DNA of 64,000 nucleotides from an uncultured Gammaproteobacteria bacterium (GCA_964345045.1 CAYFPM010000001.1:300215-364214), one strand, 5' to 3'; positions 6,219 through 48,384 are shown, counted from the first letter of the stretch. Notes: generated from the sequence alone by a model not told the origin. Translations and numbers: made by a program.

Positions 6219-7568
6219 ATGAAGTTATCTTTTTTTGGAGCAGCTCACGAAGTTACCGGTTCGTGTTTTTTATTAGAAACAAACAAAAAGAAAATTTTGA
6301 TAGATTGTGGCATGTTTCAGGGGTCTAATTTTAACGAAGGCAAAAATAACGATAATTTTCCCTTTGATCCAAAATCTATTGATGCTGTATTGGTAACCCA
6401 TGCTCATTTGGATCATACAGGACGCATCCCCAAACTGATTAGAGAAGGTTTTAAAGGACCAATTTATATGACAAAAGCTACTTGCGAACTGGCTTATTTG
6501 ATTTGGAAAGATTCTCAAAAAATAATGACTTATAACAACAAAAAATTTAAAACACCGATTCTTTATTCTATAGAAGAAGTAGAATCTACTAGAGAAGCTT
6601 GCAATGGAGTTGATTATAGACAAGAGTTAGATTTGGGAGACGGAGTAAAAGCCGTTTGGAAGGATGCCGGTCATATTTTTGGAGCTGCTTTTATAGAAGT
6701 AACTGTCGAGGGTAAAACAATTTGTTTTTCTGGGGATGTGGGCAACAGCAATGTACCGATTCTAAAAGAAACAGATCAATTGGGAGAAATAGATGTTTTG
6801 CTTTGTGAATCTACTTATGGAAATAGACGTCACGAAACTAGAAAAGAAAGTATTGAATTAATTTTGAAATTGATAAAAGAAGGGGTAGAGCGTGGTGGCA
6901 CAGTTATGATTCCATCTTTTTCTTTGGAACGTACACAAGAATTGCTTTATGATTTGAACCAACTTAGCGAAGCCGGAGAACTACCAAAAGTACCTATCTT
7001 TTTGGACAGTCCTATGGCTATAGATGCTTTGCCGGTTTATCGCAAATATCCAGAATACTACGATCGTCAAGCTGCTTGTCTGCACGAAGCTGGAGATGAT
7101 TTTTTTCAATTTGATCAATTGAAAATTACCAGAAGTGTAGAAGAGTCCAAAGCTATAAACAACATAAAAAAATCCAAGATTATAATTGCCGGCTCGGGGA
7201 TGATGAATGGTGGACGAATTGTTCACCATGCTTATAGATATTTGTCGGATCCCAATTCTACACTTATAATTGTAGGTTTTCAGGCTTATGGTACTTTGGG
7301 GCGCAGATTGTACGAAGGTGCCGAGACAGTAAAAATTTTTAATGAAAAAATTCCAGTGCGAGCTACTATCAAAGCGATTGGGGGACTATCTGCTCATGCC
7401 GACCAAAAGAAAATGATAAGTTGGGTGAGAAATGCCGAGAAAATTCCGGAAAAAATTTATTTGGTGCATGGCGAACCAACTTCGGCAGCTTCACTAGCGC
7501 ACAAGTTTCGAGATGAGTTTGGAGTAAAAACAATTGTGCCGGAGTTTGGAGATGCTACCGAAATTTAA
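6219..7568 (+). CDS. beta-CASP family MBL-fold ribonuclease (RNase J/CPSF-like)
   Basis: HAHLDHTG metallo-beta-lactamase motif followed by beta-CASP and RNA-specificity domains. Confidence 0.8.
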   Translation: MKLSFFGAAHEVTGSCFLLETNKKKILIDCGMFQGSNFNEGKNNDNFPFDPKSIDAVLVTHAHLDHTGRIPKLIREGFKGPIYMTKATCELAYLIWKDSQKIMTYNNKKFKTPILYSIEEVESTREACNGVDYRQELDLGDGVKAVWKDAGHIFGAAFIEVTVEGKTICFSGDVGNSNVPILKETDQLGEIDVLLCESTYGNRRHETRKESIELILKLIKEGVERGGTVMIPSFSLERTQELLYDLNQLSEAGELPKVPIFLDSPMAIDALPVYRKYPEYYDRQAACLHEAGDDFFQFDQLKITRSVEESKAINNIKKSKIIIAGSGMMNGGRIVHHAYRYLSDPNSTLIIVGFQAYGTLGRRLYEGAETVKIFNEKIPVRATIKAIGGLSAHADQKKMISWVRNAEKIPEKIYLVHGEPTSAASLAHKFRDEFGVKTIVPEFGDATEI

Positions 7569-7583
7569 AGATAAAAAAACAGC

Positions 7584-7606
7584 CTGTAGGCTTTTATTAG
7601 ATTATT
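7584..7606 (+). terminator. stem-loop (cagcctgtaggct) with flanking A/T runs, after the beta-CASP RNase gene
   Basis: aaaaaaacagcctgtaggcttttatt. Confidence 0.4.
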
Positions 7607-8500
7607 GATGATGTGGACGAGGAGAGGACGCCGGCAACCTAGTGGTAATACCGGCGTCCTCTCTCGCACAACCTCTAGCAGGCAATGCCCCCATAGCCTG
7701 CGAGGATGATGATCCTCCTAGTTTTTCGCGGTGTGGGAACCGAGTGTCATTGCGGCCAATCAACAACACTCGGCTCCCAATCACCCAATCCGCTGTCTTC
7801 TTTTCACACCAGAAGGAGTCTTGGCGTTACTTTTTGAAGACCTTTTCTCCTTTTCTTCCTGCTAGAGAAAGGAGTTCCGGGATTGCTCGCCGAGCACGCA
7901 TGTTTTTTCCCGGGCGGAACGGTTTTAAACCGACAGCCTCGGCACGGCAGGAGTAGAACTCTCTGCCGTGCCGGGCTGCCTGTCGAGGTCGATTAGATTC
8001 CTCTCTGTTTTGCTCGAAGGTGAGGAAGCTAACATCTAGAATTTTCTCCTAGATACAGGTATGAGTCGCGGTAACCTGCCGACCGTGTGCAGTGTGTCCG
8101 TATACTGTCCAAGATCCTCCCACCCTTTGTATACAAACGACGTCGTGATCTTCCAGAGGGGAGAGGAAGATCCTGACTTGTCGCAGTTTTGCGGGTGGTG
8201 AATCAAGGTTAGTTGCGAAAACCAGCCGAGGTCGCCGGGGGGGACGACGCCAGCTGTCACACTGCTTGATTTTTAAGATTGAAAGATCGAGAAACCTATG
8301 GCTCCGGCAGACGTGTGACTGCCTGGTGAAGTTCATTGTGTTCGCCACAACGATCTGCCGGAGCCCGAGGCCCGCTCTTTTTGGGGCTACCAGGGAGGAG
8401 GTAGCCATGGCGTAGTGTAACCGGGTCGGGTTGCACCACTAGAGGTTACGCTTTGATCTTATCCCTGGGGAAGGTCTAAGACAGCCAAGTTTTTGGGGAC
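7607..8500. other. ~0.9 kb high-GC non-coding block (island A) with multiple strong hairpins; unassigned structured RNA or degraded foreign DNA
   Basis: GC ~55-60% against a ~35% background. The only ORFs are Arg/Cys-rich spurious frames. Hairpins include gagaggacgccgg..ccggcgtcctctc, ggcacggcag..ctgccgtgcc and ggctacc..ggtagcc. Confidence 0.4.
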
Positions 8501-8705
8501 TTGGAAAGCGTCATTAATATGGATATTATTCATATCTTGAAAATTTGTCAAGGTTAAGTTAAAATCTTGGTTCTTGGTAAGATGTGGTAAACTTAATAAA
8601 TACTGATTTCGTAGATTTATAAAAATTACGCAAATATTTAATTTGAAATAGGTATAAGTTTAATTATTTATAAATGTCTAAGTTTAAAATACATTCAAAA
8701 TATCC

Positions 8706-8750
8706 AGCTTCGCTCCTTCTTCGTCGGAGCTTCGCCGGGACAAGCAAACC
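8706..8750 (+). promoter_or_regulatory. GC-rich hairpin / direct repeat (AGCTTCGC x2) immediately upstream of the uvrB ATG
   Basis: agcttcgctccttcttcgtcggagcttcgcc; no Shine-Dalgarno is visible. Confidence 0.3.
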
Positions 8751-8753
8751 AGC

Positions 8754-10850
8754 ATGAGTAAATTTAAAATAAAATCTAAATATAAACCGGCAGGAGATCA
8801 ACCCGAGGCAATTAAGGGGTTAGTTTCTGGTATAAAAAATAAAGAAGAGAAGCAAACCCTGCTTGGGGTGACAGGGTCTGGTAAGACCTTCACAGTGGCC
8901 AATGTCATAGAAAAAGTGCAAAAGCCTACTCTAGTAATTGCTCACAACAAAACTCTGGCAGCCCAGCTGTGCAACGAATTCCGTGAATTTTTCCCAGACA
9001 ATGCAGTAGAATATTTTGTAAGTTACTACGACTACTACCAACCAGAAGCTTACATGCCTGGTAGTGACACCTATATAGAGAAAGAAGCTCAGATAAATGA
9101 AGAAATAGACAGATTGCGTCATGCTTGTACGCAAGCCCTTTTGTCTCGCAAAGATGTAATTGTGGTAGCTTCGGTTTCTTGCATCTACGGACTTGGTTCC
9201 CCCAAAGAATACGAAAAAATAGTTTTGCATTTGCGAAAAGGGGATAAGCTAGATCGTCGGGGCATGATGGAGCAGCTTATTGAAATGCAGTTTGAGCGTA
9301 CTAATGGAGATTTGAAACGCGGAAGTTTCCGTATGCGTGGACAGACTTTTGAAATCATGCCGGTTAACGAAGAAAAGATTTATCGGTTTGAAGTTTCAAA
9401 CTATATAGATAGTATTGAAATGATTGATCCTGTAACTAGAAAAATTTTGAAAGAACAAGAAGATGTTTGGTTCTTTCCAGCCAAACACTATGTAGCTAGT
9501 CCAGAAGCGAGAGAGCGAGCCTATACCAGTATCAAAACAGAATTAGAAGAGCGACTAGGATTTTTTAAGAAAAAAGGTAAAGTACTGGAATACGAAAGGT
9601 TAAAAAGAAGAGTTAATTATGATTTGGAAATGATTCAAAATCTTGGTTATTGTAATGGTATAGAAAATTATTCACGTCACTTTGACGGTAGGGTAGAGGG
9701 GGAACCGGCCTTTACATTGCTCGATTATTTCCGCGAAGCCGATAAAGATTTTCTTACAGTGATAGATGAATCGCATGTAACTGTACCACAGGTAAGAGCT
9801 ATGTATGCAGGCGACAGAGCTAGAAAGGATACCTTGGTAGAGCATGGCTTTCGTCTTCCATCTGCCAGAGACAATAGGCCACTCAAGTTTGAAGAGTTTG
9901 AAGAAAGAGTAAAGCAGACTATATATGTATCGGCTACTCCTGGTGAGTATGAAAATAAAGAATCTAGCCAAGTAGTAGAGCAGATTGTACGTCCGACTGG
10001 TTTGGTAGATCCAGAGATAATTGTGCGGCCGGTGACCCCCTCAGCCTCGGCTGCGGCCTCGGCAGCTCCCCCTAAGAGGGGGAGCGATCGTTCGGCTTCG
10101 TCCACGTCTTTATCTCAAATCGAGGATGTGATTCTTCGGATTGAAGATAGAATTGGAAAAGGGGAGCGGGCGTTGGTTACTACCCTGACCAAGAAAATGG
10201 CTGAGGACTTGGACGAATATTTGCGAGAAAAGAAAATTAAAGTTAAATACTTGCATAGTGATATTAAAACTTTGGAAAGAGTAGAAATAATTACGGCTCT
10301 TCGCAAGGGTGATATAGATGTGATTGTTGGAGTAAACTTGCTTCGTGAAGGACTTGATATGCCAGAAGTTTCGCTTGTTGCTATTCTCGATGCTGATAAA
10401 GAAGGATTTTTGCGTAGTGAAACTAGCTTGATCCAGACCATTGGTAGAGCCGCTAGAAATGTAAATGGCCAAGTGGTACTATATGCCGACCAGATGACAG
10501 GCTCGATTGAGCGAGCTATAGAAGAAACCACTCGCCGTCGCGAGATACAGCTTGCTTACAACAAAAAGCATGGTATTACCCCAAAGACTATTGAAAAAGA
10601 AATTAAAAATTTGCTCGAAGAATTTGGAATTGACGTTGAAAAAGAAAAGAATAAAAAAACCAGAAAGCAAAAAAATGCCAAGAGAACTACTTTGGAATTG
10701 GATTTACTCGGGGATGCTAGATCGATTAAAGAGATTATTAAGGACAAAGAACAAAAGATGAAAGAAGCTGCCCAGGGCCTAGAATTTGAATTGGCAGCAA
10801 TTCTGCGTGATGAGATAAGGGAATTAAAAGCCAGAGAAAAAGTGAAATAA
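8754..10850 (+). CDS. uvrB: excinuclease ABC subunit B (UvrB), carrying an in-frame GC-rich insertion
   Basis: Helicase motifs (GVTGSGKTFT), UvrB interaction domain and C-terminal UVR motif; extra VTPSASAAASAAPPKRGSDRSASSTSLS segment. Confidence 0.95.
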   Translation: MSKFKIKSKYKPAGDQPEAIKGLVSGIKNKEEKQTLLGVTGSGKTFTVANVIEKVQKPTLVIAHNKTLAAQLCNEFREFFPDNAVEYFVSYYDYYQPEAYMPGSDTYIEKEAQINEEIDRLRHACTQALLSRKDVIVVASVSCIYGLGSPKEYEKIVLHLRKGDKLDRRGMMEQLIEMQFERTNGDLKRGSFRMRGQTFEIMPVNEEKIYRFEVSNYIDSIEMIDPVTRKILKEQEDVWFFPAKHYVASPEARERAYTSIKTELEERLGFFKKKGKVLEYERLKRRVNYDLEMIQNLGYCNGIENYSRHFDGRVEGEPAFTLLDYFREADKDFLTVIDESHVTVPQVRAMYAGDRARKDTLVEHGFRLPSARDNRPLKFEEFEERVKQTIYVSATPGEYENKESSQVVEQIVRPTGLVDPEIIVRPVTPSASAAASAAPPKRGSDRSASSTSLSQIEDVILRIEDRIGKGERALVTTLTKKMAEDLDEYLREKKIKVKYLHSDIKTLERVEIITALRKGDIDVIVGVNLLREGLDMPEVSLVAILDADKEGFLRSETSLIQTIGRAARNVNGQVVLYADQMTGSIERAIEETTRRREIQLAYNKKHGITPKTIEKEIKNLLEEFGIDVEKEKNKKTRKQKNAKRTTLELDLLGDARSIKEIIKDKEQKMKEAAQGLEFELAAILRDEIRELKAREKVK
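10035..10110. repeat. GC-rich palindromic element (CTCCCCCTAAGAGGGGGAG core) inserted in-frame in uvrB
   Basis: ~75 nt at ~70% GC inside an AT-rich gene. It replaces the short canonical linker after PEIxVRP. It shares modules with elements at 18868, 12118, 35065 and 59876. Confidence 0.7.
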
Positions 10851-11678: not shown

Positions 11679-14327
11679 ATGAAAGATAAAATAACAATCA
11701 AAGGCGCGCGTGAGCATAATCTAAAAAATATTGATCTAGAATTACCTAGGAATAAAATGATTGTGTTCACTGGTCTATCTGGTTCGGGCAAATCGAGCCT
11801 GGCTTTTGATACCATATTTGCCGAGGGGCAACGTAGATATGTAGAAAGCTTGTCGGCCTATGCCAGGCAATTCCTAGGTGGTATGCAGAAGCCAGATGTA
11901 GATGAGATAGAAGGGCTTTCACCAGCTATTTCGATTGATCAGAAGGCTCATAGTGCCAATCCTCGCTCGACCGTAGCGACTATCACCGAGATCTACGATT
12001 ATTTGCGGGTGCTCTATGCTAGAGTCGGGGAGCCGTACTGTCCCGTAGATGGTACCAAGATAGAGAAGATGACTGTAGATGAGATGAATGAGAAGATTTT
12101 GAAGGGATTAAAGAATACTGCCAAACCCTCACCCGCTCGGCCGAAGGCCGAGTCGACCTCTCCCAGAGGGAGAGGTAAAGCTTCAACTTCGACTAAAGTA
12201 TCTAATGAAGTTTTGATTCTCTCGCCAATAGTTCGTGGTAGGAAAGGGGAGTACTACCAGATGCTTTATGATATGTATAATTCTGGTTTTCTAGAAGTGA
12301 GAGTTGATGGCAAAATCAAGAGTTTGCGCAAGCGGATTACTCTTACTAAGAACAAAAAGCACACTATAGAAGTAGTGGTAGACAAATTTCCACTAACAGA
12401 ATTTGAATTTTCTGGCGACAAAGCTGCCAAGCAGCGTCTTGCCGAGGCAGTAGAACAGGCTGTAGATCTATCCAATGGTCTTTGTGTGGTTATATACCCT
12501 GATGGTACCGAGACAGTCTATTCTACAGAATATTCTTGCCCCAAAGATGGTTTTAGCTTTCCAGAAATTGAGCCCAGGCTCTTTAGTTTCAATAGCCCTT
12601 ATGGGCAGTGTGGTTATTGTATGGGGATTGGAACCAAGGAACTCTTTAGTGAAGAATTGTGTCCAAAATGTGAAGGAAAGAGACTCAATGAAAATGCTTT
12701 GTCTGTAAAAGTGAACAAGAAAAATATTTATGAGCTTACCTCAATGGGGATTGGAGATGCCAAGCAATTTGTAGCAGATTTGGAAGAAACCATGAGTGAA
12801 AAAGATCTAGAAATTTCTGGAGCTGTTTTTCGCGAAGTCACGGGTCGTCTTCAATTCATGCTAGACGTAGGGCTAGACTACCTTACTCTAGATCGCAAAG
12901 CTGGCACTCTCTCTGGTGGAGAAGCTCAGCGTATCCGTCTGGCTTCGCAAGTTGGGACCAAACTGGTGGGAGCACTTTATGTGCTCGACGAACCAACCAT
13001 TGGCCTGCACCAGCGCGATAATGATCAGCTTGTTTCAACTCTACGCAATTTGTGTGATGTGGGTAATACTATTATTGTAGTTGAGCATGATGAAGATACT
13101 ATTATTACCAGTGATTGGTTGGTCGACATTGGCCCTGGGGCGGGTAAGCATGGTGGAGACGTGGTTTATTCTGGTCCACTGGAAAAGATTGTGAATTTGA
13201 AATCAAAGGCCAAGAATAATACTGGTTGTAAAGAATATGGTAGTGCCGATAAATCACTGACAGGTAAATACCTGCGCGGTGAGAAAAAGATAGCTGTGCC
13301 AGAGAAGAGGAGAAAGGTAGATAGCTCGACTCCCAAAATTAAGATAAAAGGGGCCAAAGAACATAACTTGAAAAATATTAATGTGGAAATTCCATTGCGT
13401 CGTTTGGTTTGCCTTACTGGTGTTTCTGGATCTGGTAAGTCCACGCTCATGCACGACATTCTATATCGCACAGTAGCCAATAGACTCAACCATGTAAAGA
13501 AAAAAACCGGTGAGCATAAGTCTATTACCAATACCGAATATATCGATAAGATAATTAGAATTGACCAAAGCCCGATTGGTCGCACCCCGCGTAGTAATCC
13601 AGCTACTTATACCAAAGCCTATGACCATATAAGAGAGATCTTTGCCTCTACACCAGAAGCCAGAATCCGTGGTTACAAATCTGGCCGCTTTAGTTTCAAT
13701 ACGCCCAATGGTCGGTGTGAAAATTGTGAAGGTCGGGGATTCCTAGAAATAGAGATGCACTTTTTGCCAAGTGTAGAGATTGTGTGTGATGTGTGCAAGG
13801 GACAAAGATTTGATCACGAAACTTTGCAAGTGCATTACAAAGGCAAAAATATTGCCGAAGTTCTCAATATGACCATCGAAGATGCTGAAGAATTCTTTCG
13901 AGATATTCCGGCAATTTATGATAAATTAAAAGTGCTTAACCAAGTTGGTCTTGACTATTTAACACTTGGTCAGTCGGCCAAGACTCTGTCTGGTGGAGAA
14001 GCGCAGCGTATCAAACTAAGTAAAGAACTCTCCAAAAGAAATACCACCAAGACCCTGTACCTGCTAGACGAACCAACAACTGGGCTGCATTATGATGATG
14101 TACGAAAACTGGTCGATGTGTTACAACGTTTAACTTCTCAGGGTAATACAGTGATGGTGATTGAACACAACTTAGATGTAATCAAATGTGCTGATTGGCT
14201 TATAGATCTAGGCCCAGAAGGTGGTAAAAATGGAGGGCAAGTAGTGGCTGTAGGGACACCAGAGGAGATTGCTCGCAAATCTACCACCAGTTTTACGGGT
14301 AAATATTTGAAGCGAGTTTTGAAATAA
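11679..14327 (+). CDS. uvrA: excinuclease ABC subunit A (UvrA), carrying an in-frame GC-rich insertion
   Basis: Two ABC ATPase modules (GLSGSGKSSL, GVSGSGKSTL), zinc-finger cysteines, LSGGE signatures; extra AKPSPARPKAESTSPRGRGKASTSTKVSNEV. Confidence 0.95.
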   Translation: MKDKITIKGAREHNLKNIDLELPRNKMIVFTGLSGSGKSSLAFDTIFAEGQRRYVESLSAYARQFLGGMQKPDVDEIEGLSPAISIDQKAHSANPRSTVATITEIYDYLRVLYARVGEPYCPVDGTKIEKMTVDEMNEKILKGLKNTAKPSPARPKAESTSPRGRGKASTSTKVSNEVLILSPIVRGRKGEYYQMLYDMYNSGFLEVRVDGKIKSLRKRITLTKNKKHTIEVVVDKFPLTEFEFSGDKAAKQRLAEAVEQAVDLSNGLCVVIYPDGTETVYSTEYSCPKDGFSFPEIEPRLFSFNSPYGQCGYCMGIGTKELFSEELCPKCEGKRLNENALSVKVNKKNIYELTSMGIGDAKQFVADLEETMSEKDLEISGAVFREVTGRLQFMLDVGLDYLTLDRKAGTLSGGEAQRIRLASQVGTKLVGALYVLDEPTIGLHQRDNDQLVSTLRNLCDVGNTIIVVEHDEDTIITSDWLVDIGPGAGKHGGDVVYSGPLEKIVNLKSKAKNNTGCKEYGSADKSLTGKYLRGEKKIAVPEKRRKVDSSTPKIKIKGAKEHNLKNINVEIPLRRLVCLTGVSGSGKSTLMHDILYRTVANRLNHVKKKTGEHKSITNTEYIDKIIRIDQSPIGRTPRSNPATYTKAYDHIREIFASTPEARIRGYKSGRFSFNTPNGRCENCEGRGFLEIEMHFLPSVEIVCDVCKGQRFDHETLQVHYKGKNIAEVLNMTIEDAEEFFRDIPAIYDKLKVLNQVGLDYLTLGQSAKTLSGGEAQRIKLSKELSKRNTTKTLYLLDEPTTGLHYDDVRKLVDVLQRLTSQGNTVMVIEHNLDVIKCADWLIDLGPEGGKNGGQVVAVGTPEEIARKSTTSFTGKYLKRVLK
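12118..12195. repeat. GC-rich palindromic element (CCTCTCCCAGAGGGAGAGG core) inserted in-frame in uvrA
   Basis: aaaccctcacccg...gtcgacctctcccagagggagaggt; near-identical to the right half of the uvrC element. Confidence 0.7.
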
Positions 14328-14432: not shown

Positions 14433-14681
14433 ATGTTTTCCGTGAGCAAACTGATGATTCCCTCTCAAATCACCACCGACATCGCCGTCTTCATGATCTG
14501 GGGGTTCTTGATCGCCTCCATGTTGATCTCGATCATGACCTGGTGGAAGTTCTTCCCCTGGCCAACCTCGGTCTGGGCGCGCCGCATCTCGATCGGTGTC
14601 GGGCCGGTCATGTGGGGTGCCTTCTTCATCTTGGCAGCTGTGGTGTACCAGGGTCCGGTCGATCAGTTCGGTGGGCCGTAG
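14433..14681 (+). CDS. small 2-TM membrane protein (82 aa) in a high-GC cassette (island B); possible PLD-N/cardiolipin-synthase-N-like fold
   Basis: GC3-rich codons (atc/gcc/ttc/ctg) and two hydrophobic helices, GPVMWGAFFILAAVVYQG. The other long frames here are Arg/His-rich and spurious. Confidence 0.4.
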   Translation: MFSVSKLMIPSQITTDIAVFMIWGFLIASMLISIMTWWKFFPWPTSVWARRISIGVGPVMWGAFFILAAVVYQGPVDQFGGP

Positions 14682-14786
14682 AAGGTGCCCCTGCGGACGA
14701 CTTAGATGCGGGGAGACAGTGTGCGTGCACCTGTCAACCCGTGTCACCCTTCCTACAAACACTTTGGATAAGTGTTTTTTATATTG

Positions 14787-16335: not shown

Positions 16336-17157
16336 TCATGCTGCGATCCTCTCGGCCGTAGTCGAGATTACCGTACCAGCACGAGTACCGGTCATGGTGT
16401 TGCACACCTCGATCGGTACCAGGCCAGCGGCCAGCTCGACAGCTCGGGGGTGGACCACGCAGGCGTTGAGGGCAAGGAAGTTTGCCGGAGTGATCTCGGT
16501 GAACAATGTGGCATCGGCGTGTTGGTTGGGGTCTTTGTTGTAGACTCCGTCTACGTCGGTCCAGTTGCAGTGAGTAGCCGAGAGGGCCACGGCGAGTAGG
16601 CTTGCCGTTACATCCGAACCCCCACGCCCGAGCGTGATGACCCGGCCGTCTGCCGTAGCACCGTAGAAACCAGGCACGATCACCTGGTGACCATTGCATC
16701 GCTCGCGGATAAGTTGGTAGGTGGCTTCGAGGTCGATGTTGCCTTCGTCGTCCACACGGATCACATTGGCTGCGTCGACAAATTGGGAACCAGTAAGCTC
16801 GGCCATGATCTGAGCCATGAGCCACTCGCCGCGCGAGGCAGCCAAGTCGTAGCTAGACTTGATCTCAAAGCGAACCTGATTGAGAAGCTTCTCGATGTCG
16901 ATCGATAAGCCGAGCTCGGACACAATGCTCTCGAACCGAGCGACGATCGCGGCCCAGTTCGCCTCGAAGTCTTCGCCACGCTGGCAGGCAATGAAGCGGT
17001 CAGTGAGCTTGGTAGCATCGGCTGGCAACTTGCCCGGAGCCGAGCAAACGACTGCCTGGCAGCCGTGGTTGCTTTGGATGATCTCGAAAACCCGCCGGAC
17101 GTTTTGGGCACATGAAAGCGACGTGCCACCAAACTTGCAGATAGTTTTTTCGGTCAT
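16336..17157 (-). CDS. aspartate kinase catalytic (amino-acid kinase) domain, no ACT regulatory domains; high GC
   Basis: KFGGTSL and LGRGGSD aspartokinase motifs. Ends at the catalytic/ACT boundary (273 aa). Strong SD aggagggtg upstream. GC ~60%. Confidence 0.7.
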   Translation of the reverse strand: MTEKTICKFGGTSLSCAQNVRRVFEIIQSNHGCQAVVCSAPGKLPADATKLTDRFIACQRGEDFEANWAAIVARFESIVSELGLSIDIEKLLNQVRFEIKSSYDLAASRGEWLMAQIMAELTGSQFVDAANVIRVDDEGNIDLEATYQLIRERCNGHQVIVPGFYGATADGRVITLGRGGSDVTASLLAVALSATHCNWTDVDGVYNKDPNQHADATLFTEITPANFLALNACVVHPRAVELAAGLVPIEVCNTMTGTRAGTVISTTAERIAA

Positions 17158-17501
17158 TTCACCCTCCTAGGTGATAAAAAGAGCCTTAGCTCGTTTGAAC
17201 TAGTGAGCTCCAATTGCTTGGAACCCGGTTTGTTCAACCGATTTTTGGAATACGAAAAAACCGCCCAGGAGGCGGTTTCTAGTAATTTTTGGGTACTAAG
17301 AAATTCACCTCGCTGGGGCGGTCATCTTCTTGGTCTTTTTTGTAGCAAGAATGAATTTCATAATATTTTGAGCTTACTAGGATTTTTCGGATTTGTAAAA
17401 TTTTTTGTGGATAAGAGGGGAATTTAGGTCTCTTTGACGATTGTGTTATTATATCTACAATAAAAAATAAAGGTTTTTTAAGGGTAATAAAAGGAGGGAA
17501 C

Positions 17502-18083
17502 ATGCCAGAAAAATATAAAAATAAATATCGGATACCATCAGCCAGATATAAAGGTTGGAATTATGGATGGGATGGATATTATTTTGTGACAATTTGTACA
17601 AAAAATAGGGAACATTTTTTTGGAAATATTGTGGAAGGGAAAATGATTTTGTCGGAAATTGGGGAAATGGTCGAAAAATATTGGTATGAAATTCCAAAAC
17701 ATTTTTCATTTGTACGGTTGGATGCGTTTGTGGTAATGCCGAACCATTTTCATGCCATTGTGATAATTGATAAAAATAATGATAAACCGGTAGAGACGCA
17801 TTGCAATGCGTCTCTACAACAACGGGATGTATATAAAAAATCAAATGATCATCGTGAATACCAAAATAAATTCGGCCCGCAAAAACACAATTTGGCGTCC
17901 ATAATTCGTGGTTTCAAAGGGACGGTAACCAAACAGGTCAACGAAAGATTTGGTGATGAATATTTCGCCTGGCAACCCCGATTCCACGAACACATTATCC
18001 GCAACGAAATAGCGTTGGAAAGAATTCGTAAATATATAAAATTAAATCCTTGGAAATGGCAAGATGATTGTTTTTTCAAATAA
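17502..18083 (+). CDS. REP-associated tyrosine transposase (RAYT) / IS200-like Y1 HUH transposase
   Basis: YYFVTICTKNRE, HuH motif NHFHAIV, WQPRFHEHIIRNE...IRKYIKLNPWKW tyrosine region. Confidence 0.75.
   Translation: MPEKYKNKYRIPSARYKGWNYGWDGYYFVTICTKNREHFFGNIVEGKMILSEIGEMVEKYWYEIPKHFSFVRLDAFVVMPNHFHAIVIIDKNNDKPVETHCNASLQQRDVYKKSNDHREYQNKFGPQKHNLASIIRGFKGTVTKQVNERFGDEYFAWQPRFHEHIIRNEIALERIRKYIKLNPWKWQDDCFFK
17790..17817. repeat. 28-nt perfect palindrome inside the RAYT ORF
   Basis: GTAGAGACGCATTGCAATGCGTCTCTAC, encoding VETHCNASLQ between the HuH and Tyr regions. Confidence 0.6.
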
Positions 18084-18085
18084 TT

Positions 18086-19477
18086 ATGTCTACAAAAATT
18101 CAAAAAAAATTAAAAAATCTTCCAGATACACCGGGTATCTATCTTTTTTATAATTTCAAAAAAGAATTAGTCTATGTAGGCAAAGCCACTTCTCTAAAAA
18201 GTAGAGTTAGAAGTTACTTCAACAGTGGTAACAAAACTAGCCGACCAATAGAAGCACTGATTCACGAAGTGGCAGATATAAAATGGAAAGAAGCAGACTC
18301 TGTACTAGAAGCCATAATAATGGAAGCCAACCATATAAAAAAATATCAACCCAAATATAATGTAGACGGTAAAGATGATAAAAGTTGGAATTATATTGTA
18401 ATAACCAAAGACGAGTATCCACGTGTAGAGACTGTGCGACAACATGAGCTTGAAAATGTACGAAATACTAAAGATACGAAATTACGAAAATTTAACGAAG
18501 TGTTTGGGCCATATCCTGGGTTGAATACCAAAGAGACTTTGAAATTGCTAAGAAAGATTTTTACTTATTCAACCTGTCAAAGCAAGAAAGCAAAAAAACA
18601 AGAAAGCAAAAAAGTTAAGCCATGTTTTTATTATCAACTAGGGCAGTGTTTGGGGGTGTGTACTGGCGAGATAAGTTCTACAGAATACAAAGCAAAAGTA
18701 ATTAGGCCTTTGAAAACTTTTCTTGGTGGTAGAAAAAAGCAACTTATAAAAAGTTTGGAAGTAAAAATGAGAAAGGAGTCTAAGCTAGAGAATTTCGAAG
18801 AAGCAGCCAGACTTCGCAACCAGATATCGGCTTTGCAAAGGATTCATGATGTGGCGCTTTTGAATAAATCGTTTGTAGATACCCCCTCAGGCCTGCGGCC
18901 AGCTCCCCCTAAACCCTCACCCGGACGCCCTGCGGTCGTTTCGACCTCTCCCAGAGGGAGAGGTGAAAACTCTGATTCTAGAAAAGAAGTTATTAGAATA
19001 GAAGGCTACGATATTTCTAATTTTGGTGCTACTGGCAAAGTGGGGTCGATGGTGGTCTTTGAATTTGGCGAAGCCAAGAAAAAAGATTACAGAAAATTTA
19101 AAATTAAATCTGTAGTAGGGCAGAGTGATGTGGATTGTCTCGAGGAAGTTCTTGAACGCAGACTGCGTCACGCAAAAAGCAAAGAGCAAGGAACAAAGAA
19201 CAAGAAAGATTTTTGGCCTTTGCCGCAAGTATTTTTGATTGATGGTGGTAAGCCGCAGGTTAACCGGGCAAAGAAAGTTTTGAAAGATAATAAAGTGGAT
19301 GTGCCGGTGGTGGGGATTGCCAAGGGGCCAGATAGAAAAAAAAATGAATTTATATTGGGGAGTAAGAATAAAGACTTTGTTAAATGGGTTTATTCTAATC
19401 AAAAATTGTTAATCGCGGTGCGCGACGAGGCTCATCGGTTTGCAATTGCTTATCAGCGAAAATTACGAAAATTATAA
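18086..19477 (+). CDS. uvrC: excinuclease ABC subunit C (UvrC), short form without C-terminal (HhH)2, carrying an in-frame GC-rich insertion
   Basis: GIY-YIG (PGIYLFYN...VYVGKA), UvrBC-binding region, RNaseH-like endonuclease (DEAHRFAI); extra DTPSGLRPAPPKPSPGRPAVVSTSPRGRGENSDSRK. Confidence 0.9.
   Translation: MSTKIQKKLKNLPDTPGIYLFYNFKKELVYVGKATSLKSRVRSYFNSGNKTSRPIEALIHEVADIKWKEADSVLEAIIMEANHIKKYQPKYNVDGKDDKSWNYIVITKDEYPRVETVRQHELENVRNTKDTKLRKFNEVFGPYPGLNTKETLKLLRKIFTYSTCQSKKAKKQESKKVKPCFYYQLGQCLGVCTGEISSTEYKAKVIRPLKTFLGGRKKQLIKSLEVKMRKESKLENFEEAARLRNQISALQRIHDVALLNKSFVDTPSGLRPAPPKPSPGRPAVVSTSPRGRGENSDSRKEVIRIEGYDISNFGATGKVGSMVVFEFGEAKKKDYRKFKIKSVVGQSDVDCLEEVLERRLRHAKSKEQGTKNKKDFWPLPQVFLIDGGKPQVNRAKKVLKDNKVDVPVVGIAKGPDRKKNEFILGSKNKDFVKWVYSNQKLLIAVRDEAHRFAIAYQRKLRKL
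18868..18957. repeat. GC-rich composite palindromic element inserted in-frame in uvrC
   Basis: ccccctcaggcctgcggccagctccccctaaaccctcacccgg...cgacctctcccagagggagaggtg. Left half matches the uvrB element and right half the uvrA element. Confidence 0.7.
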
Positions 19478-19608
19478 GAACAAAAAACGACCGGAAGGTC
19501 GTTTTTTGTTCTATCTGTATATTTTTACAAATATACAAAATGGTGTGGGTGCAAGCAACGAATTGCTTGCACCAGAATTCCTTTGTAGCTCTAGTGCCAT
19601 AGAGCCGA

Positions 19609-19680
19609 TGGGGCGGGCCGGAATCGAACCGGAGACTCTCTGACGGACGTCAGGCGCTTTCCCAATTAAGCTACCGCTCC
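19609..19680 (-). tRNA. tRNA-like gene with atypical anticodon arm (possibly Gly-UCC-like); CCA not encoded
   Basis: Acceptor GGAGCGG/CCGCCCC (one A-C mismatch), D arm GCTT-AATTGGGA-AAGC, T arm with TTCGATT loop. The anticodon region CTGACGTCCGTCAG folds as a tight palindrome and gives a 6-nt loop under the standard template. Confidence 0.45.
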
Positions 19681-19931
19681 TAGTTGTGTTTGTAGAACCT
19701 TGTCTACTTTTTTACGATTCTATCGTTTCCTACCCAGCCAATCACCTCGACGAGTAGGAGGCAGCCACGTAATCCTAATCGGAGGGAGTTTATGACCACA
19801 GCTTCGGTGGCTTTGTAGGCCAATGTGCCTTTTTGGAGGCGACATCCGGATTTCTCTTGGTTTTGCATACTAAAATCATTATCACAAAAAAAAGTAAATG
19901 TCAATAGCAAAAATGTTTTTTGTTTAGTATC

Positions 19932-19960
19932 TTGACAATTTAATAAAATTGTGTTAATAA
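19932..19960 (+). promoter_or_regulatory. candidate promoter (TTGACA-17-TAATAA) for the high-GC small ORF
   Basis: ttgaca at 19932; weak -10. Confidence 0.3.
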
Positions 19961-19998
19961 AAATATATTCTCGTTTAGAGATGGAAGGAGCTAATAGA

Positions 19999-20208
19999 AT
20001 GACTAACGTTACGTACGAGACCTGCCCGGGGTGTGGTGGTACCAGGTCAAGGGGTCACTACGGTGGCACCAGGTGTCCCCGCTGTTCCAGGAATGCTCGC
20101 GAGTCCAGGCGTCGCACCGCCGCCGCGATCGGTGACGCAATCATCGAGGGGCCAATCGCGGTTGTCAAGGGCGTGAGGAGCGTCTTCAGGTTCTTAAACC
20201 AGCTCTGA
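19999..20208 (+). CDS. small Arg-rich zinc-ribbon protein (CPGCGG...CPRC), high GC (island D)
   Basis: SD ggaaggag 8 nt upstream of ATG; CxxC-x14-CxxC; GC ~62%; its own terminators follow. Confidence 0.45.
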   Translation: MTNVTYETCPGCGGTRSRGHYGGTRCPRCSRNARESRRRTAAAIGDAIIEGPIAVVKGVRSVFRFLNQL

Positions 20209-20247
20209 CCGCCAGGTCCAGGTTCTGCGAGAGCAACCGAGAATGCG

Positions 20248-20312
20248 GGAGCACGATTAGTCGTGCTCCTGCCTCAAACTTCAATTTGTTACAGCCTGTA
20301 GGCTGTTTTTTT
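20248..20312 (+). terminator. two consecutive hairpins (ggagcacga..tcgtgctcc; acagcctgtaggctgt + T7) ending island D
   Basis: The second hairpin core cagcctgtaggct is identical to the one at 7590. Confidence 0.5.
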
Positions 20313-20359
20313 GTTTACAAATAAACTAAATTTTTATCCACAAAAGTGGGTATTTGTGG

Positions 20360-20388
20360 TTGTTGCATAAATAAAAGTGGTGTATAAT
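20360..20388 (+). promoter_or_regulatory. mraZ promoter (TTGTTG-17-TATAAT)
   Basis: tataat at 20383, ~80 nt upstream of the mraZ ATG. Confidence 0.4.
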
Positions 20389-20467
20389 GGATGCAGGTGG
20401 GGAAAAGTGGGGAAAATCCTTTCAATCGTTCCGACCTCTACTTCTAGTAGAGGCAAAGTTGCTAACC

Positions 20468-44760: not shown

Positions 44761-45028
44761 GTAGTGGGTAGTGGTTTGGTGGATGTTTTTTGGCTAAATT
44801 TAGATAAAAAAGTCTAGCTTGGGCTAGCTTTTTTGGTTTTATCTGATTTTGGTTGACAAAAGGTGTTTTTTTTGGTAATTTTAGCTGTCAATTCTATAAT
44901 AGGATAATTGTATGCGGAGACTGTAATTGGTTGGGAGAAGGTGAAATTTCTTCCACCCTATGCGTTCTTCGTCGTTCAGAAATTTTTAGTATGAACGGCA
45001 AAACAATTTAGAAGGAGGAAGGTTAGAA

Positions 45029-45868
45029 ATGAGTGACAAAAAAGGAAAAGTAGAAGTCACTGAGCAGGTTCATCTCGGACGATCTTGGAGGGTAGGTGAA
45101 GCGTACGATCCTGGTTCCGATATGCCCACGGGTATGGAGGAAGTGCCGAAAGACTTCCTTGACGATGATGGTGCTACGGAGGATGAGCCTGACGATACAG
45201 AGGTTCAACTGGTTCGTCCGCTCACAGACAGCCAAGTGGATCAGCCTGCCCCCGCCGGGCTGGGCTACTACGATGAGCCTCCTACGGAGGAGGGCCCCCC
45301 TCTTCCTTCGGAATCGCCTGCTGTGGTCTCTATCCCCACCGATACGCTCGTGCAGCAACCGGCATTGAGTTGGTGGCAGATTCCTGGCAACTGGGTCAAG
45401 GTGGTGACTATCTTGCTCGTTTTTGTCGTGGCTCTTTTGTTGGGCATGCTCAACAAAAAGTCGGATGAAGAGATCAAGGCTGAACCGCTTGATCAAGCTG
45501 CCCCGGCAAGTAAGCTGGTAGACATTCCCGATGATCCCCCTGTGGCTACGTCGGCGGTCGCTACCGCCCCAGATGCTGGAGTGATGCCCGAGGATCCTCC
45601 TCGGGTAGCTCCAGTGCTCAGGAGGAGTGGTCCTGATGCGGGAGTGAAGAAGGCGGTCAAGAGGAAGGCAAAGAAACGTCGGGAGAAACGCAAGAAGAAA
45701 CCGGCGAAAGATCCAGAAGAAACTACTACCACCCACCAACTTTTGCCTGGAGAGTCTGTCGAAGACTACTGTGACCGGTGGTCTGCCAAAACTTTTTCCA
45801 GCCCTGGCTTGGCTAGGATTGGCGCTTACAAAAGCTGTGTCAAGGAATTGAAAGGAGGAGGCAAATGA
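45029..45868 (+). CDS. single-pass membrane protein with acidic Pro-rich N-region and Lys-rich C-region; high GC (island E gene 1)
   Basis: SD gaaggagg upstream. The first ~14 codons are AT-rich and then GC rises to ~62%. One TM helix (VKVVTILLVFVVALLLGML). Confidence 0.5.
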   Translation: MSDKKGKVEVTEQVHLGRSWRVGEAYDPGSDMPTGMEEVPKDFLDDDGATEDEPDDTEVQLVRPLTDSQVDQPAPAGLGYYDEPPTEEGPPLPSESPAVVSIPTDTLVQQPALSWWQIPGNWVKVVTILLVFVVALLLGMLNKKSDEEIKAEPLDQAAPASKLVDIPDDPPVATSAVATAPDAGVMPEDPPRVAPVLRRSGPDAGVKKAVKRKAKKRREKRKKKPAKDPEETTTTHQLLPGESVEDYCDRWSAKTFSSPGLARIGAYKSCVKELKGGGK

Positions 45869-46791
45869 GAGCCTTCGTGATTGCTATCTTTTTGGTTTTT
45901 TCTTCCAGCTTGATGGCGCAAGCCTCTGACTGGAAGGACGTTCTGCATCTCCCTCCGAAAGATCCGGGCAGCCCACGATTGGTGGGCAAGGCAGCCGACG
46001 TCATGGGGGCTTTGGCTCACTGTCAGCAAGAAGTCCGTTGTCAGATCTTGGTGAAGGAGGATAAGCCCGGTGGGACTGAGTATGGGAATATGTGGCACGA
46101 GGAGTGTTACGAACTTCTCAACTCGGCCGCGATCATGAAACCAGGGCCGGAAACTTGGTTCGTCTCGGAAAAAGACGAGATGGTGGTAGCGATAGATGAT
46201 CCTGGCTCTGGTGGCCACGAAGGTGCTGTGATCAAGTGCCGAGTAGATCCCAAGCCGGCTACCATGCCCTCTATGCCATCGTCACCCCCACCAACCGTAG
46301 CCAAAGCGGTCGAACTTCAAGGTGAGAGCGATTTCAAGTTCGCCCTCACAGTCGACTTCGGAGTCGGTTTCTCACGACTCGATCCGTCGCCGGACCATTA
46401 CTTCGACGGTACGGTCGGCATCGGAGGACTGCTCTTGATCAATGATTTCTGGGAGGTCGCTCTCCGAATCGACTTTGGTGGGACATTCCGCGAGGGACAG
46501 ACGTGGTACTTCGTACCACAGCTCTCTGGCGGGGTGCGACCGGCCGACTGGATATACTTCGGCGTCTTTGGGCGCCTTGGTGGTGCAACCCAGGGATCCT
46601 ACTGGGGTAACCTAGGATTTGGAGTACGGGTGTACCCGCTCAAGATCTTCGGATCGGAGTTCCCGTTGGCTGTCTTCTTCGAGACCGATGCCCTTGGGCG
46701 TCAGGTCACACCGGAGACCGAGACCCACAACCCTGGCGATCAGGGGCGCATGGGCCTGCGCGGTGGTCTACGCTACGAAGCTTTTTTCTAA
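45865..46791 (+). CDS. secreted protein with beta-barrel-like C-terminus ending ...YEAFF (island E gene 2)
   Basis: Signal peptide MRAFVIAIFLVFSSSLMAQA; Gly/aromatic-rich alternating pattern; terminal Phe like OMP beta-barrels; ATGA overlap with gene 1. Confidence 0.5.
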   Translation: MRAFVIAIFLVFSSSLMAQASDWKDVLHLPPKDPGSPRLVGKAADVMGALAHCQQEVRCQILVKEDKPGGTEYGNMWHEECYELLNSAAIMKPGPETWFVSEKDEMVVAIDDPGSGGHEGAVIKCRVDPKPATMPSMPSSPPPTVAKAVELQGESDFKFALTVDFGVGFSRLDPSPDHYFDGTVGIGGLLLINDFWEVALRIDFGGTFREGQTWYFVPQLSGGVRPADWIYFGVFGRLGGATQGSYWGNLGFGVRVYPLKIFGSEFPLAVFFETDALGRQVTPETETHNPGDQGRMGLRGGLRYEAFF

Positions 46792-46911
46792 CGTTCATTT
46801 TTTGGCGGATGAGATCTTTCGAGATCCATCCGCCCCGTTCACATGTTCAGCATTGCAAATGCTGTGCAGGTGTTGGGTAACGCTCTTTCAAATTTTGGAA
46901 AGGAAAACAAG

Positions 46912-48384
46912 ATGAAGAAGATCGCTTTGGCCGTCTTGGCCGCACTGTTCACCTCCACCGGCTGCGAGGTGGTAAACCTCGGCAGCCCGGGTATGGCGCC
47001 GACTGAGAAGCACTTCGTGCAGTATGACGGCGGAGATCTCGACGCAGGTTTCATCGTCGGCGACGACGTGGGGCCCATCGATATGGGCTTCATCGACGCT
47101 GGCTACGATGTCGGCTTCCGCGACGCCAACCTCGACGCAGAGGCAATGGATGCGATCGCTGACGCCGACGTGACCGATGTCTACGACGACGTTGGGTTCG
47201 CTGATGCAGAAGCAGATTCTGGTCTGGACGACAGCGGGGTTCACCCCGATGCCGACTTGCCGGACGCGATCGTAGACTCGGGACCCGAGGATACTGGCGT
47301 CCACCCGGACGCCTTTGTCCCCGACATGGGTTTCCCAGACGCCGAGCCGATCGACGCCGTGATCCATCCCGATGCGGAGATTACGGACAATGGAATCCAC
47401 TTTGACGCCACAGTATACCCCGATGCTACGCCAGACACAGGGTTCCCAGACAGCGGCTTTGCCGACTCTGGGACTCTGGATTCTGGACTCGACGCTGGGG
47501 TTATCGACGGTGGTGGCCCGCCTGTTTGTCCGGCCGGGTTCATCTATGTAGCTCCTGGTTCGTTCACTATGGGGACTCCGGCTGCAGCACCGTGGTTCTC
47601 CTCGCCAGAAGGACCGCAACACCAGGTCAGTTTGACCTATGGCTACATCATGGGGGAGACCGAGGTAACCAGAGCCCAGCTGCAAGCAGTGTTGGGCATT
47701 GCTCGAGATCCTTCTTGGAACACCGGCTGTGGGGCAAATTGCCCGGCTACCAACGTGAGCTGGGACCTGGCGGCCGAGTATGCCAATGCTCTTTCTATTA
47801 GCCAAGGTCTGTCTCCATGCTACGCTGGCTCTGCCGGGAGCTACACTTTCGTAGGACTCTCGTGTACTGGCTGGCGTATGCCGACCGAGGCCGAGTGGGA
47901 ATTTGCCGCTCGAGCTGGTAGTACCACTGCCTTTTGGAATGGTGACCCAGTGAACTTCTCCTCGGGGAGTGCTATGACAACCTTTGGTGAGCCTGGGCAT
48001 GCAATTGCCTGGTGGTTGGCCAATAGTCAGGTAGCCTACACTCCAGCTGTGGACACGTTCACGGCTCCGGACAATGGATTTACCATGGCTGGTACGCACC
48101 CGGTAGCCACCAAGACCCCCAATCCGCTCGGTCTCTATGACATGAACGGCAACGTCTGGGAGCTTACCTCGGATTGTTGGACGCAGACCTACCCGGGATC
48201 AAATCCCAGAACCAATCCGGTGACCGGGGCTGGTACCCGGTGTGCCAGTATTGTGAGGCGTGGAGGAAGTTTTGCCGACCCGCAAAGCTCCTTGCACAAC
48301 TCCACTAGGTTTGGAGATTTCCCGCATGTTCAGAATCCTCTCAATGGTTTCCGGATAGCGCGTAATCACCCGGCCTGCCAGTAG
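46912..48384 (+). CDS. lipoprotein with Asp-rich HPDA repeats and C-terminal FGE-sulfatase (SUMF1/DUF323) domain (island E gene 3)
   Basis: Lipobox LFTSTGC; GSFTMGTP...TNVSWDLAAEYANALS...GWRMPTEAEWEFAARAG...YDMNGNVWELTSDCW...RGGSF. Confidence 0.7.
   Translation: MKKIALAVLAALFTSTGCEVVNLGSPGMAPTEKHFVQYDGGDLDAGFIVGDDVGPIDMGFIDAGYDVGFRDANLDAEAMDAIADADVTDVYDDVGFADAEADSGLDDSGVHPDADLPDAIVDSGPEDTGVHPDAFVPDMGFPDAEPIDAVIHPDAEITDNGIHFDATVYPDATPDTGFPDSGFADSGTLDSGLDAGVIDGGGPPVCPAGFIYVAPGSFTMGTPAAAPWFSSPEGPQHQVSLTYGYIMGETEVTRAQLQAVLGIARDPSWNTGCGANCPATNVSWDLAAEYANALSISQGLSPCYAGSAGSYTFVGLSCTGWRMPTEAEWEFAARAGSTTAFWNGDPVNFSSGSAMTTFGEPGHAIAWWLANSQVAYTPAVDTFTAPDNGFTMAGTHPVATKTPNPLGLYDMNGNVWELTSDCWTQTYPGSNPRTNPVTGAGTRCASIVRRGGSFADPQSSLHNSTRFGDFPHVQNPLNGFRIARNHPACQ

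Follow-up and report, generated by a model that had tools for sequence, protein, structure and literature searches.

A probable subclass 2.4 RAYT gene carrying an in-frame double-foot REP palindrome next to uvrC

The closest described relatives of the gene analysed here are the REP-associated tyrosine transposases (RAYTs, or TnpA_REP) of subclass 2.4, defined by Quentin, Siguier, Chandler and Fichant (2018, BMC Genomics 19:475, PMC6006769) and corresponding to RAYT Group 4 of Bertels, Gallie and Rainey (2017). Members of this subclass carry the motifs NH[IFV]H, WQ and YIxNNP, have a mean length of 194 aa and show a median HuH-to-Y distance of 88 aa (Table 1, PMC6006769), and they bear a β3–αC insert of variable length and sequence. 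Their REPs have a 'double foot', GT[AG]G at the 5′ side and C[TC]AC at the 3′ side, and REP copies lying in frame inside the transposase gene are a hallmark of the subclass (PMC6006769). The authors of that description saw in the REP-hosting region a peripheral extension that probably affects activity little. Subclass 2.4 proteins include Chloroflexus aggregans ACL24330, Cyanothece ACK69880 and Calothrix AFY32102, and Table S1 of PMC6006769 gives 28-nt REPs with the stem GTAGAGACGC or GTAGAGACGT, such as GTAGAGACGCACGGCCGTGCGTCTCTAC of Chloroflexus aggregans and GTAGAGACGTTGCATGCAACGTCTCTAC of Cyanothece. Group 4 is common in Cyanobacteria, Chlorobia and Caldilineae, and its flanking 16-mers are scarce, at about 14 per replicon (Bertels et al. 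2017).

The TnpA_REP of E. coli (RayT; PDB 4ER8) belongs to subclass 2.2, or Group 2. It shares with the protein described here the Y1 HuH fold, the GTAG-binding segment WQPRF.EH..RN, a tyrosine in a YIxxNP helix and the class of substrate, a GTAG-footed hairpin on single-stranded DNA. The two proteins are only about 20% identical, however, and the E. coli enzyme has DHLH in place of NHFH as its HuH motif and lacks the long β3–αC insert; E. coli REPs are single-footed with a bulge, extragenic and abundant, and none lies inside the gene. The TnpA proteins of IS200/IS605 elements (IS608, ISDra2) have the same fold, recognize single-stranded DNA hairpins and form a covalent 5′-phosphotyrosine link, but they carry other motifs and belong to true insertion sequences with subterminal LE/RE hairpins, often with tnpB and in multiple copies. 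Rickettsia palindromic elements (RPE) and intragenic REPs offer a further likeness, as short in-frame palindromes that are translated as extra surface peptides. Unlike in those cases, the host gene here is itself the presumed mobilizer and the element its own cognate substrate.

A RAYT gene with subclass 2.4 traits

The window, by which we mean the whole 64-kb stretch of DNA that was analysed, contains the following gene and catalytic elements.

17502..18083, plus strand: intact RAYT (TnpA_REP) gene encoding 193 aa from an ATG start, recognized from the ORF list, Pfam, NCBIfam, homologues, fold match and motifs.
17742..17753, plus strand: codons N81-H82-F83-H84 of the HuH motif (NHFHAIV); H82 and H84 are invariant in an alignment of 36 proteins (A1) and align to LPEHMH of 4er8.
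17970-17975, plus strand: codons W157-Q158, invariant in A1.
17970..18005, plus strand: WQPRFHEHIIRN, which a phmmer alignment to 4er8 matches to the GTAG-binding residues of E. coli TnpA_REP.
18033..18035, plus strand: codon of Tyr178, the presumed catalytic tyrosine (RKYIKLNP), aligned to position 115 of chain 4er8_A in DYIYINP.

Position 115 of 4er8_A is what we take to be the catalytic Y115 of TnpA_REP, and Y178 is nearly invariant in A1. The NHFH motif, Y178 and matches to Pfam and 4er8 agree in identifying a Y1/HuH transposase of the RAYT type with a C-terminal tyrosine, as the original prediction held. The Pfam profile that it had named for a check, Y1_Tnp (PF01797), matched the protein at 32 bits against a cut-off of 23. 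The sole NCBIfam match was REP_Tyr_transpos (NF047646), whose score of 70.5 bits falls under the curated equivalog cut-off of 80, placing the protein by sequence as a relative, and not an equivalog, of the RayT proteins behind that model. A search for homologues returned more than 4300 at E < 1e-3; the top ones are 50–60% identical and come from Bacteroidota and many uncultured lineages.

An AlphaFold2 model of the protein built with 36 sequences has a mean pLDDT of 80.8 and a pTM of 0.75. Its best fold match by Foldseek is the E. coli TnpA_REP structure 4er8 (E 6.9e-7), with IS200/IS605 transposases next; 4er8 is also the best PDB match by sequence and the sole solved structure found in that way. 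In E. coli TnpA_REP the GTAG foot is bound by W94, Q95, W99, E100, H101 and R104 (Figure S11, PMC6006769). In the phmmer alignment these pair as W157/W94, Q158/Q95, H162/W99, E163/E100, H164/H101 and R167/R104, five of the six being identical, with W99 replaced by H162.

We weighed whether the gene could encode the transposase of a canonical IS200/IS605 insertion sequence (TnpA_IS200). The fold matches the ISDra2, IS608 and IS200 transposases with E values of about 1e-5 to 1e-6, and the Pfam family is common to both kinds of protein. Set against this, the protein reads NHFH, WQ and YIKLNP where subclass 1.1, which comprises the IS200/IS605 TnpA proteins, has DH[VI]H, W[TS] and Y[IV]ENQ (PMC6006769), and TnpA_REP is its best match by both structure and sequence. 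The LE/RE hairpins and tnpB that the original prediction had named as marks of such an element were likewise looked for: neither flank holds hairpins, the gene abuts uvrC across a 2-nt gap, its neighbours are an AA_kinase gene and uvrC with no tnpB among those in the window, and a tblastn search found no second RAYT copy or pseudogene in the window. An IS200/IS605 transposase is, in our view, extremely unlikely.

Agreement with subclass 2.4 extends across the protein and its DNA. The Y1 fold, NHFH, WQ, the length and the HuH-to-Tyr distance (94 residues from H84 to Y178) are all those of the subclass, as are the variable insert, the double-foot REP and an internal REP in frame between HuH and Y. 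The Y motif, YIKLNP, departs from the published YIxNNP only at its fourth position, where L stands in place of N; A1 itself has YIxNNP as its consensus, with N182 and P183 invariant. Judged by sequence, the gene shows every subclass 2.4 trait that can be assessed here, with that single departure in the Y motif. The taxa of its homologues (Cyanobacteria, Chlorobiota, Chloroflexota and Bacteroidota) are those described for Group 4 and subclass 2.4, whose patchy distribution across phyla they share.

One general RAYT trait is not seen in the window. Scanning the 64 kb for GT[AG]G...C[TC]AC recovered the internal copy and no other GTAG-footed hairpin, half-site, REP doublet or flanking REP, and the flanking REPs and REP/REPIN population that generally make up a REPtron were therefore not found within the window, in contrast to the described members of subclass 2.4. 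The gene looks solitary in this genome, and given the lack of a REPtron arrangement within 64 kb it may be inactive or orphaned. The sparseness of REPs in the window agrees with the low abundance reported for Group 4.

The internal palindrome and its linker

Two features define the part of the gene between the catalytic motifs.

17790..17817, unstranded: 28-nt perfect palindrome GTAGAGACGCATTGCAATGCGTCTCTAC, a 'double-foot' REP (GTAG...CTAC) of 14+14 nt, identified by sequence and by the same position in homologues.
17766..17891, plus strand: variable β3–αC linker hosting the REP (about residues 89–130), delimited from AlphaFold2 pLDDT and alignment A1.

The palindrome occupies codons 97–105 and the first base of codon 106 and encodes in frame the peptide V-E-T-H-C-N-A-S-L-(Q); the coordinates and translation first given for it, a perfect 28-nt palindrome between the catalytic motifs encoding VETHCNASLQ, are correct. 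It is single in the 64-kb window even at 3 mismatches, with 0 matches in 100 shuffles, and no 14-bp stem arose in 20 block shuffles of the window. Only a 16-bp terminator hairpin 3′ of uvrC forms a longer perfect stem in the 64 kb. The palindrome folds with an energy of −14 kcal/mol (z-score −6.1) for DNA and −22.9 kcal/mol (z-score −6.5) for RNA. An Rfam search over the gene and the whole window assigned no family to the palindrome and placed only a tRNA above gathering scores. The basal stem, GTAGAGACGC, is that of the Chloroflexus aggregans subclass 2.4 REP, and the upper stem and loop, ATTGCAAT, form a variant absent from Table S1 of PMC6006769.

In the AlphaFold2 model the palindrome-encoded segment lies in a low-confidence linker between the strand of residues 82–89, which carries the HuH motif, and the helix of residues 131–150. 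The pLDDT falls below 50 at residues 96–107 and 109–113, and means over 10-residue blocks are 46–58 across residues 91–130. The linker is hypervariable in length and sequence in A1 and is some 25–30 residues shorter in homologues that lack the hairpin. The structural comparison proposed at the outset thus places the peptide, as modelled, in the β3–αC loop of the TnpA_REP fold, within a long linker that is lacking in 4er8 and shortened in hairpin-less homologues.

Taken with the subclass traits, the gene is very probably an intact subclass 2.4 RAYT carrying, within its reading frame, a copy of its cognate double-foot REP in the disordered linker that joins the HuH strand to αC. The window gene shares with known subclass 2.4 members the HuH, WQ and Y motifs, the length, the enlarged HuH-to-Tyr distance and the variable β3–αC insert, together with a 28-nt double-foot REP that has the basal stem GTAGAGACG and sits in frame inside the gene. 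A RAYT with an in-frame internal REP is an already described kind, this being a published hallmark of subclass 2.4, and the window adds one more example. The suggestion that a hairpin had been inserted into, or co-opted by, the transposase gene matches what the literature reports for this subclass (PMC6006769).

By analogy with E. coli TnpA_REP, the enzyme would bind a GTAG-footed hairpin on single-stranded DNA and cut and join there. The REP may have reached the linker through the enzyme's own single-strand cleavage and joining at GTAG, a chemistry known for E. coli TnpA_REP. Its presence in the enzyme's own gene would be tolerated because the linker is peripheral, with survival only of insertions read in the two TAG-free frames, and either selection or RAYT-mediated exchange with other REP copies would keep the palindrome perfect.

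The hairpin across relatives and beyond RAYT genes

A block of the form VET(QNF/HCN/LHA)ASL follows the HuH strand in almost every sequence of A1, amid a linker that cannot otherwise be aligned. Back-translated, these blocks give one palindrome, GTAGAGACG-N10-CGTCTCTAC. For comparison, 80 genomic loci in which relatives are encoded were retrieved; their sources are Bacteroidota, Chlorobiota, Chloroflexota, Cyanobacteria, Gammaproteobacteria and several CPR lineages. In 71 of them both the HuH and the WQ motif could be placed. Of these 71 loci, 53 have a perfect hairpin of 9 bp or more between the two motifs, as against 4 of 71 for a control segment of 230 nt in the same genes; the remaining 18 loci lack such a hairpin, and some of these contain decayed remnants. 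The internal hairpins of loci L004, L015 and L019 are identical to the Cyanothece REP GTAGAGACGTTGCATGCAACGTCTCTAC. A strict REP-peptide pattern fits 81 of the 116 closest proteins that have both motifs; a few are decayed and only two (P0068 and P0079) lack any REP-derived peptide, so that such a peptide is kept in about 98%. The original prediction had treated the palindrome as peculiar to this gene, a view that these counts overturn: the trait is clade-wide.

Copies of the hairpin also occur around the genes of relatives. Further copies that match the internal hairpin stand no more than 400 nt from the gene, on one side or the other, at 20 of the 53 loci. At L079 the loop of the internal copy is oriented opposite to those of the flanking copies, at L039 it is opposite to that of the single downstream copy, and L008, L047 and L064 are among the loci with copies in inverted pairs. 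These flanking and inverted-pair copies are the REPtron arrangement expected of a RAYT. Four loci have matching copies farther off, within about 10 kb, and at 32 of the 53, the window included, about 10 kb of surrounding sequence contains no copy besides the internal one.

The 28-mer of the window is not confined to RAYT genes either. An exact-sequence scan found it in, at the least, more than 120 public metagenome stretches. Of 85 occurrences on 80 stretches, 6 fall inside a RAYT homologue and 2 at up to 500 nt from one; 65 others are without a RAYT nearby, and for the last 12 a contig end is too near for a decision. From the first flanking base on, the copies share no sequence context, and around 84 dispersed copies we found no target-site duplication and, as a signature, only a weak T(−1)/A(+1) bias. 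The 28-mer is a dispersed element, mobile elsewhere. Open frames of at least 200 codons contain 29 of the 85 occurrences, and dispersed copies may thus sit inside other genes too. The family pattern of the REP was found in 116 viral-contig stretches, and among 80 stretches examined none showed a RAYT on a viral contig with the pattern.

These observations bear on whether the protein needs the peptide VETxxxASL, the DNA palindrome being a by-product. V97, E98, T99 and S104 are each conserved in at least 90% of A1, as that reading would have it. Reading frames argue otherwise: 29 hairpins with a GT[AG]G foot are read as VET...ASL in 19 cases, as RRD....VST in 10 and in the TAG-containing frame in none. 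The same DNA read in two frames means that the DNA is kept, not the peptide. In relatives the palindrome also stands beyond the ORF, both 5′ and 3′ of the gene, the identical 28-mer occurs in at least 65 places without a RAYT, and the peptide segment itself is modelled with a pLDDT below 50. We consider a requirement for the peptide scarcely probable.

The preferred reading, a REP copy hosted in the linker of its own RAYT, leaves the question of how the palindrome is kept. A comparison of 22 distinct 28-mers shows almost no variation in the eight basal pairs and an upper stem that varies with pairing retained. Changes occur on both sides in 8 of 12 stem pairs, a count reached in 0 of 500 shuffles, in a set picked as perfect hairpins, whose 100% pairing is partly by construction. 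Independent insertions, instead of compensatory changes at one site, may account for the differing upper stems. Hairpin sequence correlates weakly with protein similarity (Spearman 0.20, a value reached in 10 of 500 permutations). Mean pairwise identity is 0.89 over the basal nine bases of each hairpin arm, four of which were fixed by selecting loci on the foot; over 35 codons of the catalytic core it is 0.73 at first and second positions and 0.47 at third positions, and in the 12 nt on either side of the hairpin it drops to 0.27–0.33. Since the palindrome is conserved above the catalytic core, inside a linker that is not conserved, a neutral relic is unlikely. We infer that the internal REP is either selected or continually renewed by exchange with other copies. 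A double-foot basal stem that is almost identical across phyla, in palindromes kept perfect within a hypervariable linker, points to active maintenance, whether by selection or by RAYT-mediated exchange, a point that the original description of the subclass left as 'little impact' (PMC6006769). If functional, the internal REP would make this a compact example of a transposase that carries its own substrate.

Selection could mean that the hairpin is a cis-acting element in its own right and not a tolerated passenger, a reading that would add to the one preferred here without excluding it. Such an element might be an autoregulatory site bound or cut on single-stranded DNA, an mRNA hairpin that throttles translation, or a self-carried 'seed' REP for joint horizontal transfer. 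The perfect palindrome amid a hypervariable linker, the excess of basal-arm identity over that of non-synonymous core positions (0.89 against 0.73), the retention of the REP-derived peptide in all but 2 of the 116 closest homologues, the 32 of 53 loci at which the internal copy is the sole one within about 10 kb and the strong RNA hairpin (−22.9 kcal/mol) all speak for it. Yet a perfect hairpin of 9 bp or more is missing from 18 of the 71 loci, some with decayed remnants; among loci the copy number (0–3), the offset from HuH (9–175 nt) and the reading frame all vary; RAYT-mediated exchange would also keep the palindrome perfect without any function; and the authors of the original description regard the region as peripheral and as affecting activity little (PMC6006769). 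A selected cis-acting role seems to us possible but rather unlikely. The more specific idea, that the internal REP serves as a self-carried master copy re-seeding REPs after transfer, or as a site by which the enzyme senses or limits its own gene, we hold to be less likely still; were it true, the window would represent the minimal state, a RAYT whose only local substrate lies inside itself.

Gene neighbourhood and the uvr inserts

Upstream of the gene lie putative expression signals, and downstream its neighbour uvrC.

17434..17461, plus strand: promoter-like site TTGACG-16 nt-TACAAT upstream of the RAYT gene (10/12 in a consensus scan, by consensus match alone).
17492..17497, plus strand: Shine–Dalgarno-like AGGAGG, 4 nt before the ATG.
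18086..19477, plus strand: uvrC, recognized from its GIY-YIG, UvrC_M and UvrC_RNaseH domains; given as context and not part of the element.

The RAYT stop codon TAA occupies 18081-18083 and the uvrC ATG begins at 18086, leaving the gap of 2 nt that had been reported. As no terminator-like site was found between the two genes and the 16-bp terminator hairpin follows uvrC (19477-19512), co-transcription is likely, and the sequence makes uvrC a probable operon partner of the RAYT gene. This apparent operon sets the locus apart from the subclass 2.4 examples. So does the host, which has the look of a small, low-GC genome, probably of the CPR, and not of a cyanobacterium or a member of the Bacteroidota. 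On the other side, the upstream neighbours are the AA_kinase gene and a diaminopimelate-decarboxylase-like gene on the other strand.

REPs occur within genes elsewhere, notably within repair genes (Di Nocera et al. 2013, PMC3733652), and the window itself contains palindromic inserts in uvrA, uvrB and uvrC. The uvrA insert (12123-12198) and the uvrC insert (18911-18986), both GC-rich and in frame, represent one 76-nt element in two copies that are 75% identical; its hairpin is ACCTCTCCC-AGA-GGGAGAGGT. A related insert in uvrB, at 10011-10111, carries the hairpin GCTCCCCCT-AAG-AGGGGGAGC. That these elements share a window with the RAYT gene, and that REPs inside DNA-repair genes are reported in other bacteria, would fit the original prediction that the RAYT mobilizes them. 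Their stems, however, are unrelated to the RAYT palindrome, and the footed-hairpin scan of the window, which finds only the internal RAYT copy, places no GTAG or CTAC foot, the signal that TnpA_REP recognizes, on any of the three inserts. The retention of five of six GTAG-binding residues argues in addition that a GTAG foot is still required by the protein. Given the known recognition rule, the RAYT is therefore not the expected mobilizer of the uvr inserts, a role that we consider very unlikely. Two ideas about the locus are thereby corrected, one taking the palindrome as peculiar to this gene, the other tracing the uvrA, uvrB and uvrC inserts to the RAYT.

On sequence grounds the RAYT gene looks horizontally acquired. 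Its GC content of 34.7% is near the window average of 38%, and the adjacent AA_kinase gene has 58.5%. Homologues from CPR lineages (Uhrbacteria, Magasanikbacteria, Parcubacteria and Moraniibacteria) are 41–43% identical to the window protein and those from Bacteroidota 48–51%, and the greater distance of the CPR homologues fits such an origin. Among the 80 loci only L032 (Ca. Magasanikbacteria) has uvrC near a RAYT homologue, about 9 kb away, which indicates that the adjacency of RAYT and uvrC is local to this genome; the uvrC of L032 is 57% identical to that of the window.

The RAYT linker in homologous proteins

The internal REP of the REP-associated tyrosine transposase (RAYT) is a perfect palindrome, and the minus strand of 17791-17817, read in the matching phase, consequently encodes the same nine residues, VETHCNASL, as the plus strand (tblastn self-match). 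Some RAYT homologues hold two or three internal REP copies, and the linker, the variable β3-αC segment that hosts the internal REP, also carries tandem peptide repeats (DGRN, ADG) in some of them; both features occur among L006, the L015-like proteins P0006, P0049 and P0059, and locus L061. Together, the multiple REPs and the peptide repeats indicate that the linker is a hot spot of repeated insertion and expansion. In the Candidatus Magasanikbacteria locus L032, uvrC (19250-20464; 57% identity to uvrC of the window) lies approximately 9 kb from that locus's own RAYT homologue, a hint that a CPR lineage akin to this one is the source of the window.

Dispersed copies of the REP

Among the matches listed, more than 120 stretches of metagenomes from varied environments contain the exact 28-mer, GTAGAGACGCATTGCAATGCGTCTCTAC, each time with unrelated flanks. 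At 65 of 85 occurrences in the metagenome loci L084-L163 there was no RAYT nearby, and 29 of these 85 fell within open frames of at least 200 codons. An identical REP across so many hosts is unusual beside the species-specific REPs of proteobacteria. The pattern of this REP family, GTAGAGACG-N10-CGTCTCTAC, also occurred in 116 viral-contig stretches from IMG/VR. None of the 80 of these that were examined (L204-L283) encodes a RAYT homologue, and phages or prophages may therefore carry such REPs as passengers.

Inserts in the uvr genes

The original prediction viewed a RAYT as the expected mobiliser of REP-like palindromic families of the sort inserted in three uvr genes, while noting that the palindromes differ in sequence:

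uvrA 12123-12198: GC-rich 76-nt element inserted in frame, with the hairpin ACCTCTCCC-AGA-GGGAGAGGT
uvrC 18911-18986: GC-rich 76-nt element inserted in frame, with the hairpin ACCTCTCCC-AGA-GGGAGAGGT
uvrB 10011-10111: GC-rich insert related to the uvrA/uvrC element, with the hairpin GCTCCCCCT-AAG-AGGGGGAGC

The uvrA and uvrC copies are 75% identical and have their hairpin in common. Because the GTAG foot is absent from all three inserts, they constitute a family separate from the REP of the RAYT. In Rfam, the uvrC insert gave a match to whalefall-1 (18913-18966, minus strand) that, at 23.6 bits, falls short of the gathering score of 37.

Non-coding and GC-rich regions of the window

A further stretch borders uvrB:

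7570-8750: approximately 1.2 kb, flanked by an RNase-J-like gene (6219-7568) on one side and by uvrB (8754-10850) on the other

This stretch holds no ORF of more than 119 codons and had no match in an Rfam search, and its non-coding length is unusual given the compactness of the genome. Several islets of high GC content, together with hairpins, occur within it, among them 7622-7663 and 8295-8370.

Against the 38% GC of the window, GC-rich patches stand out at 14540-14740, 16336-17157 and 45000-48000, and these are likely to be foreign DNA. GC content reaches 58.5% in the AA_kinase gene adjoining the RAYT and 54-60% in the 45-48 kb region. The RAYT itself lies on the margin of one of these patches.
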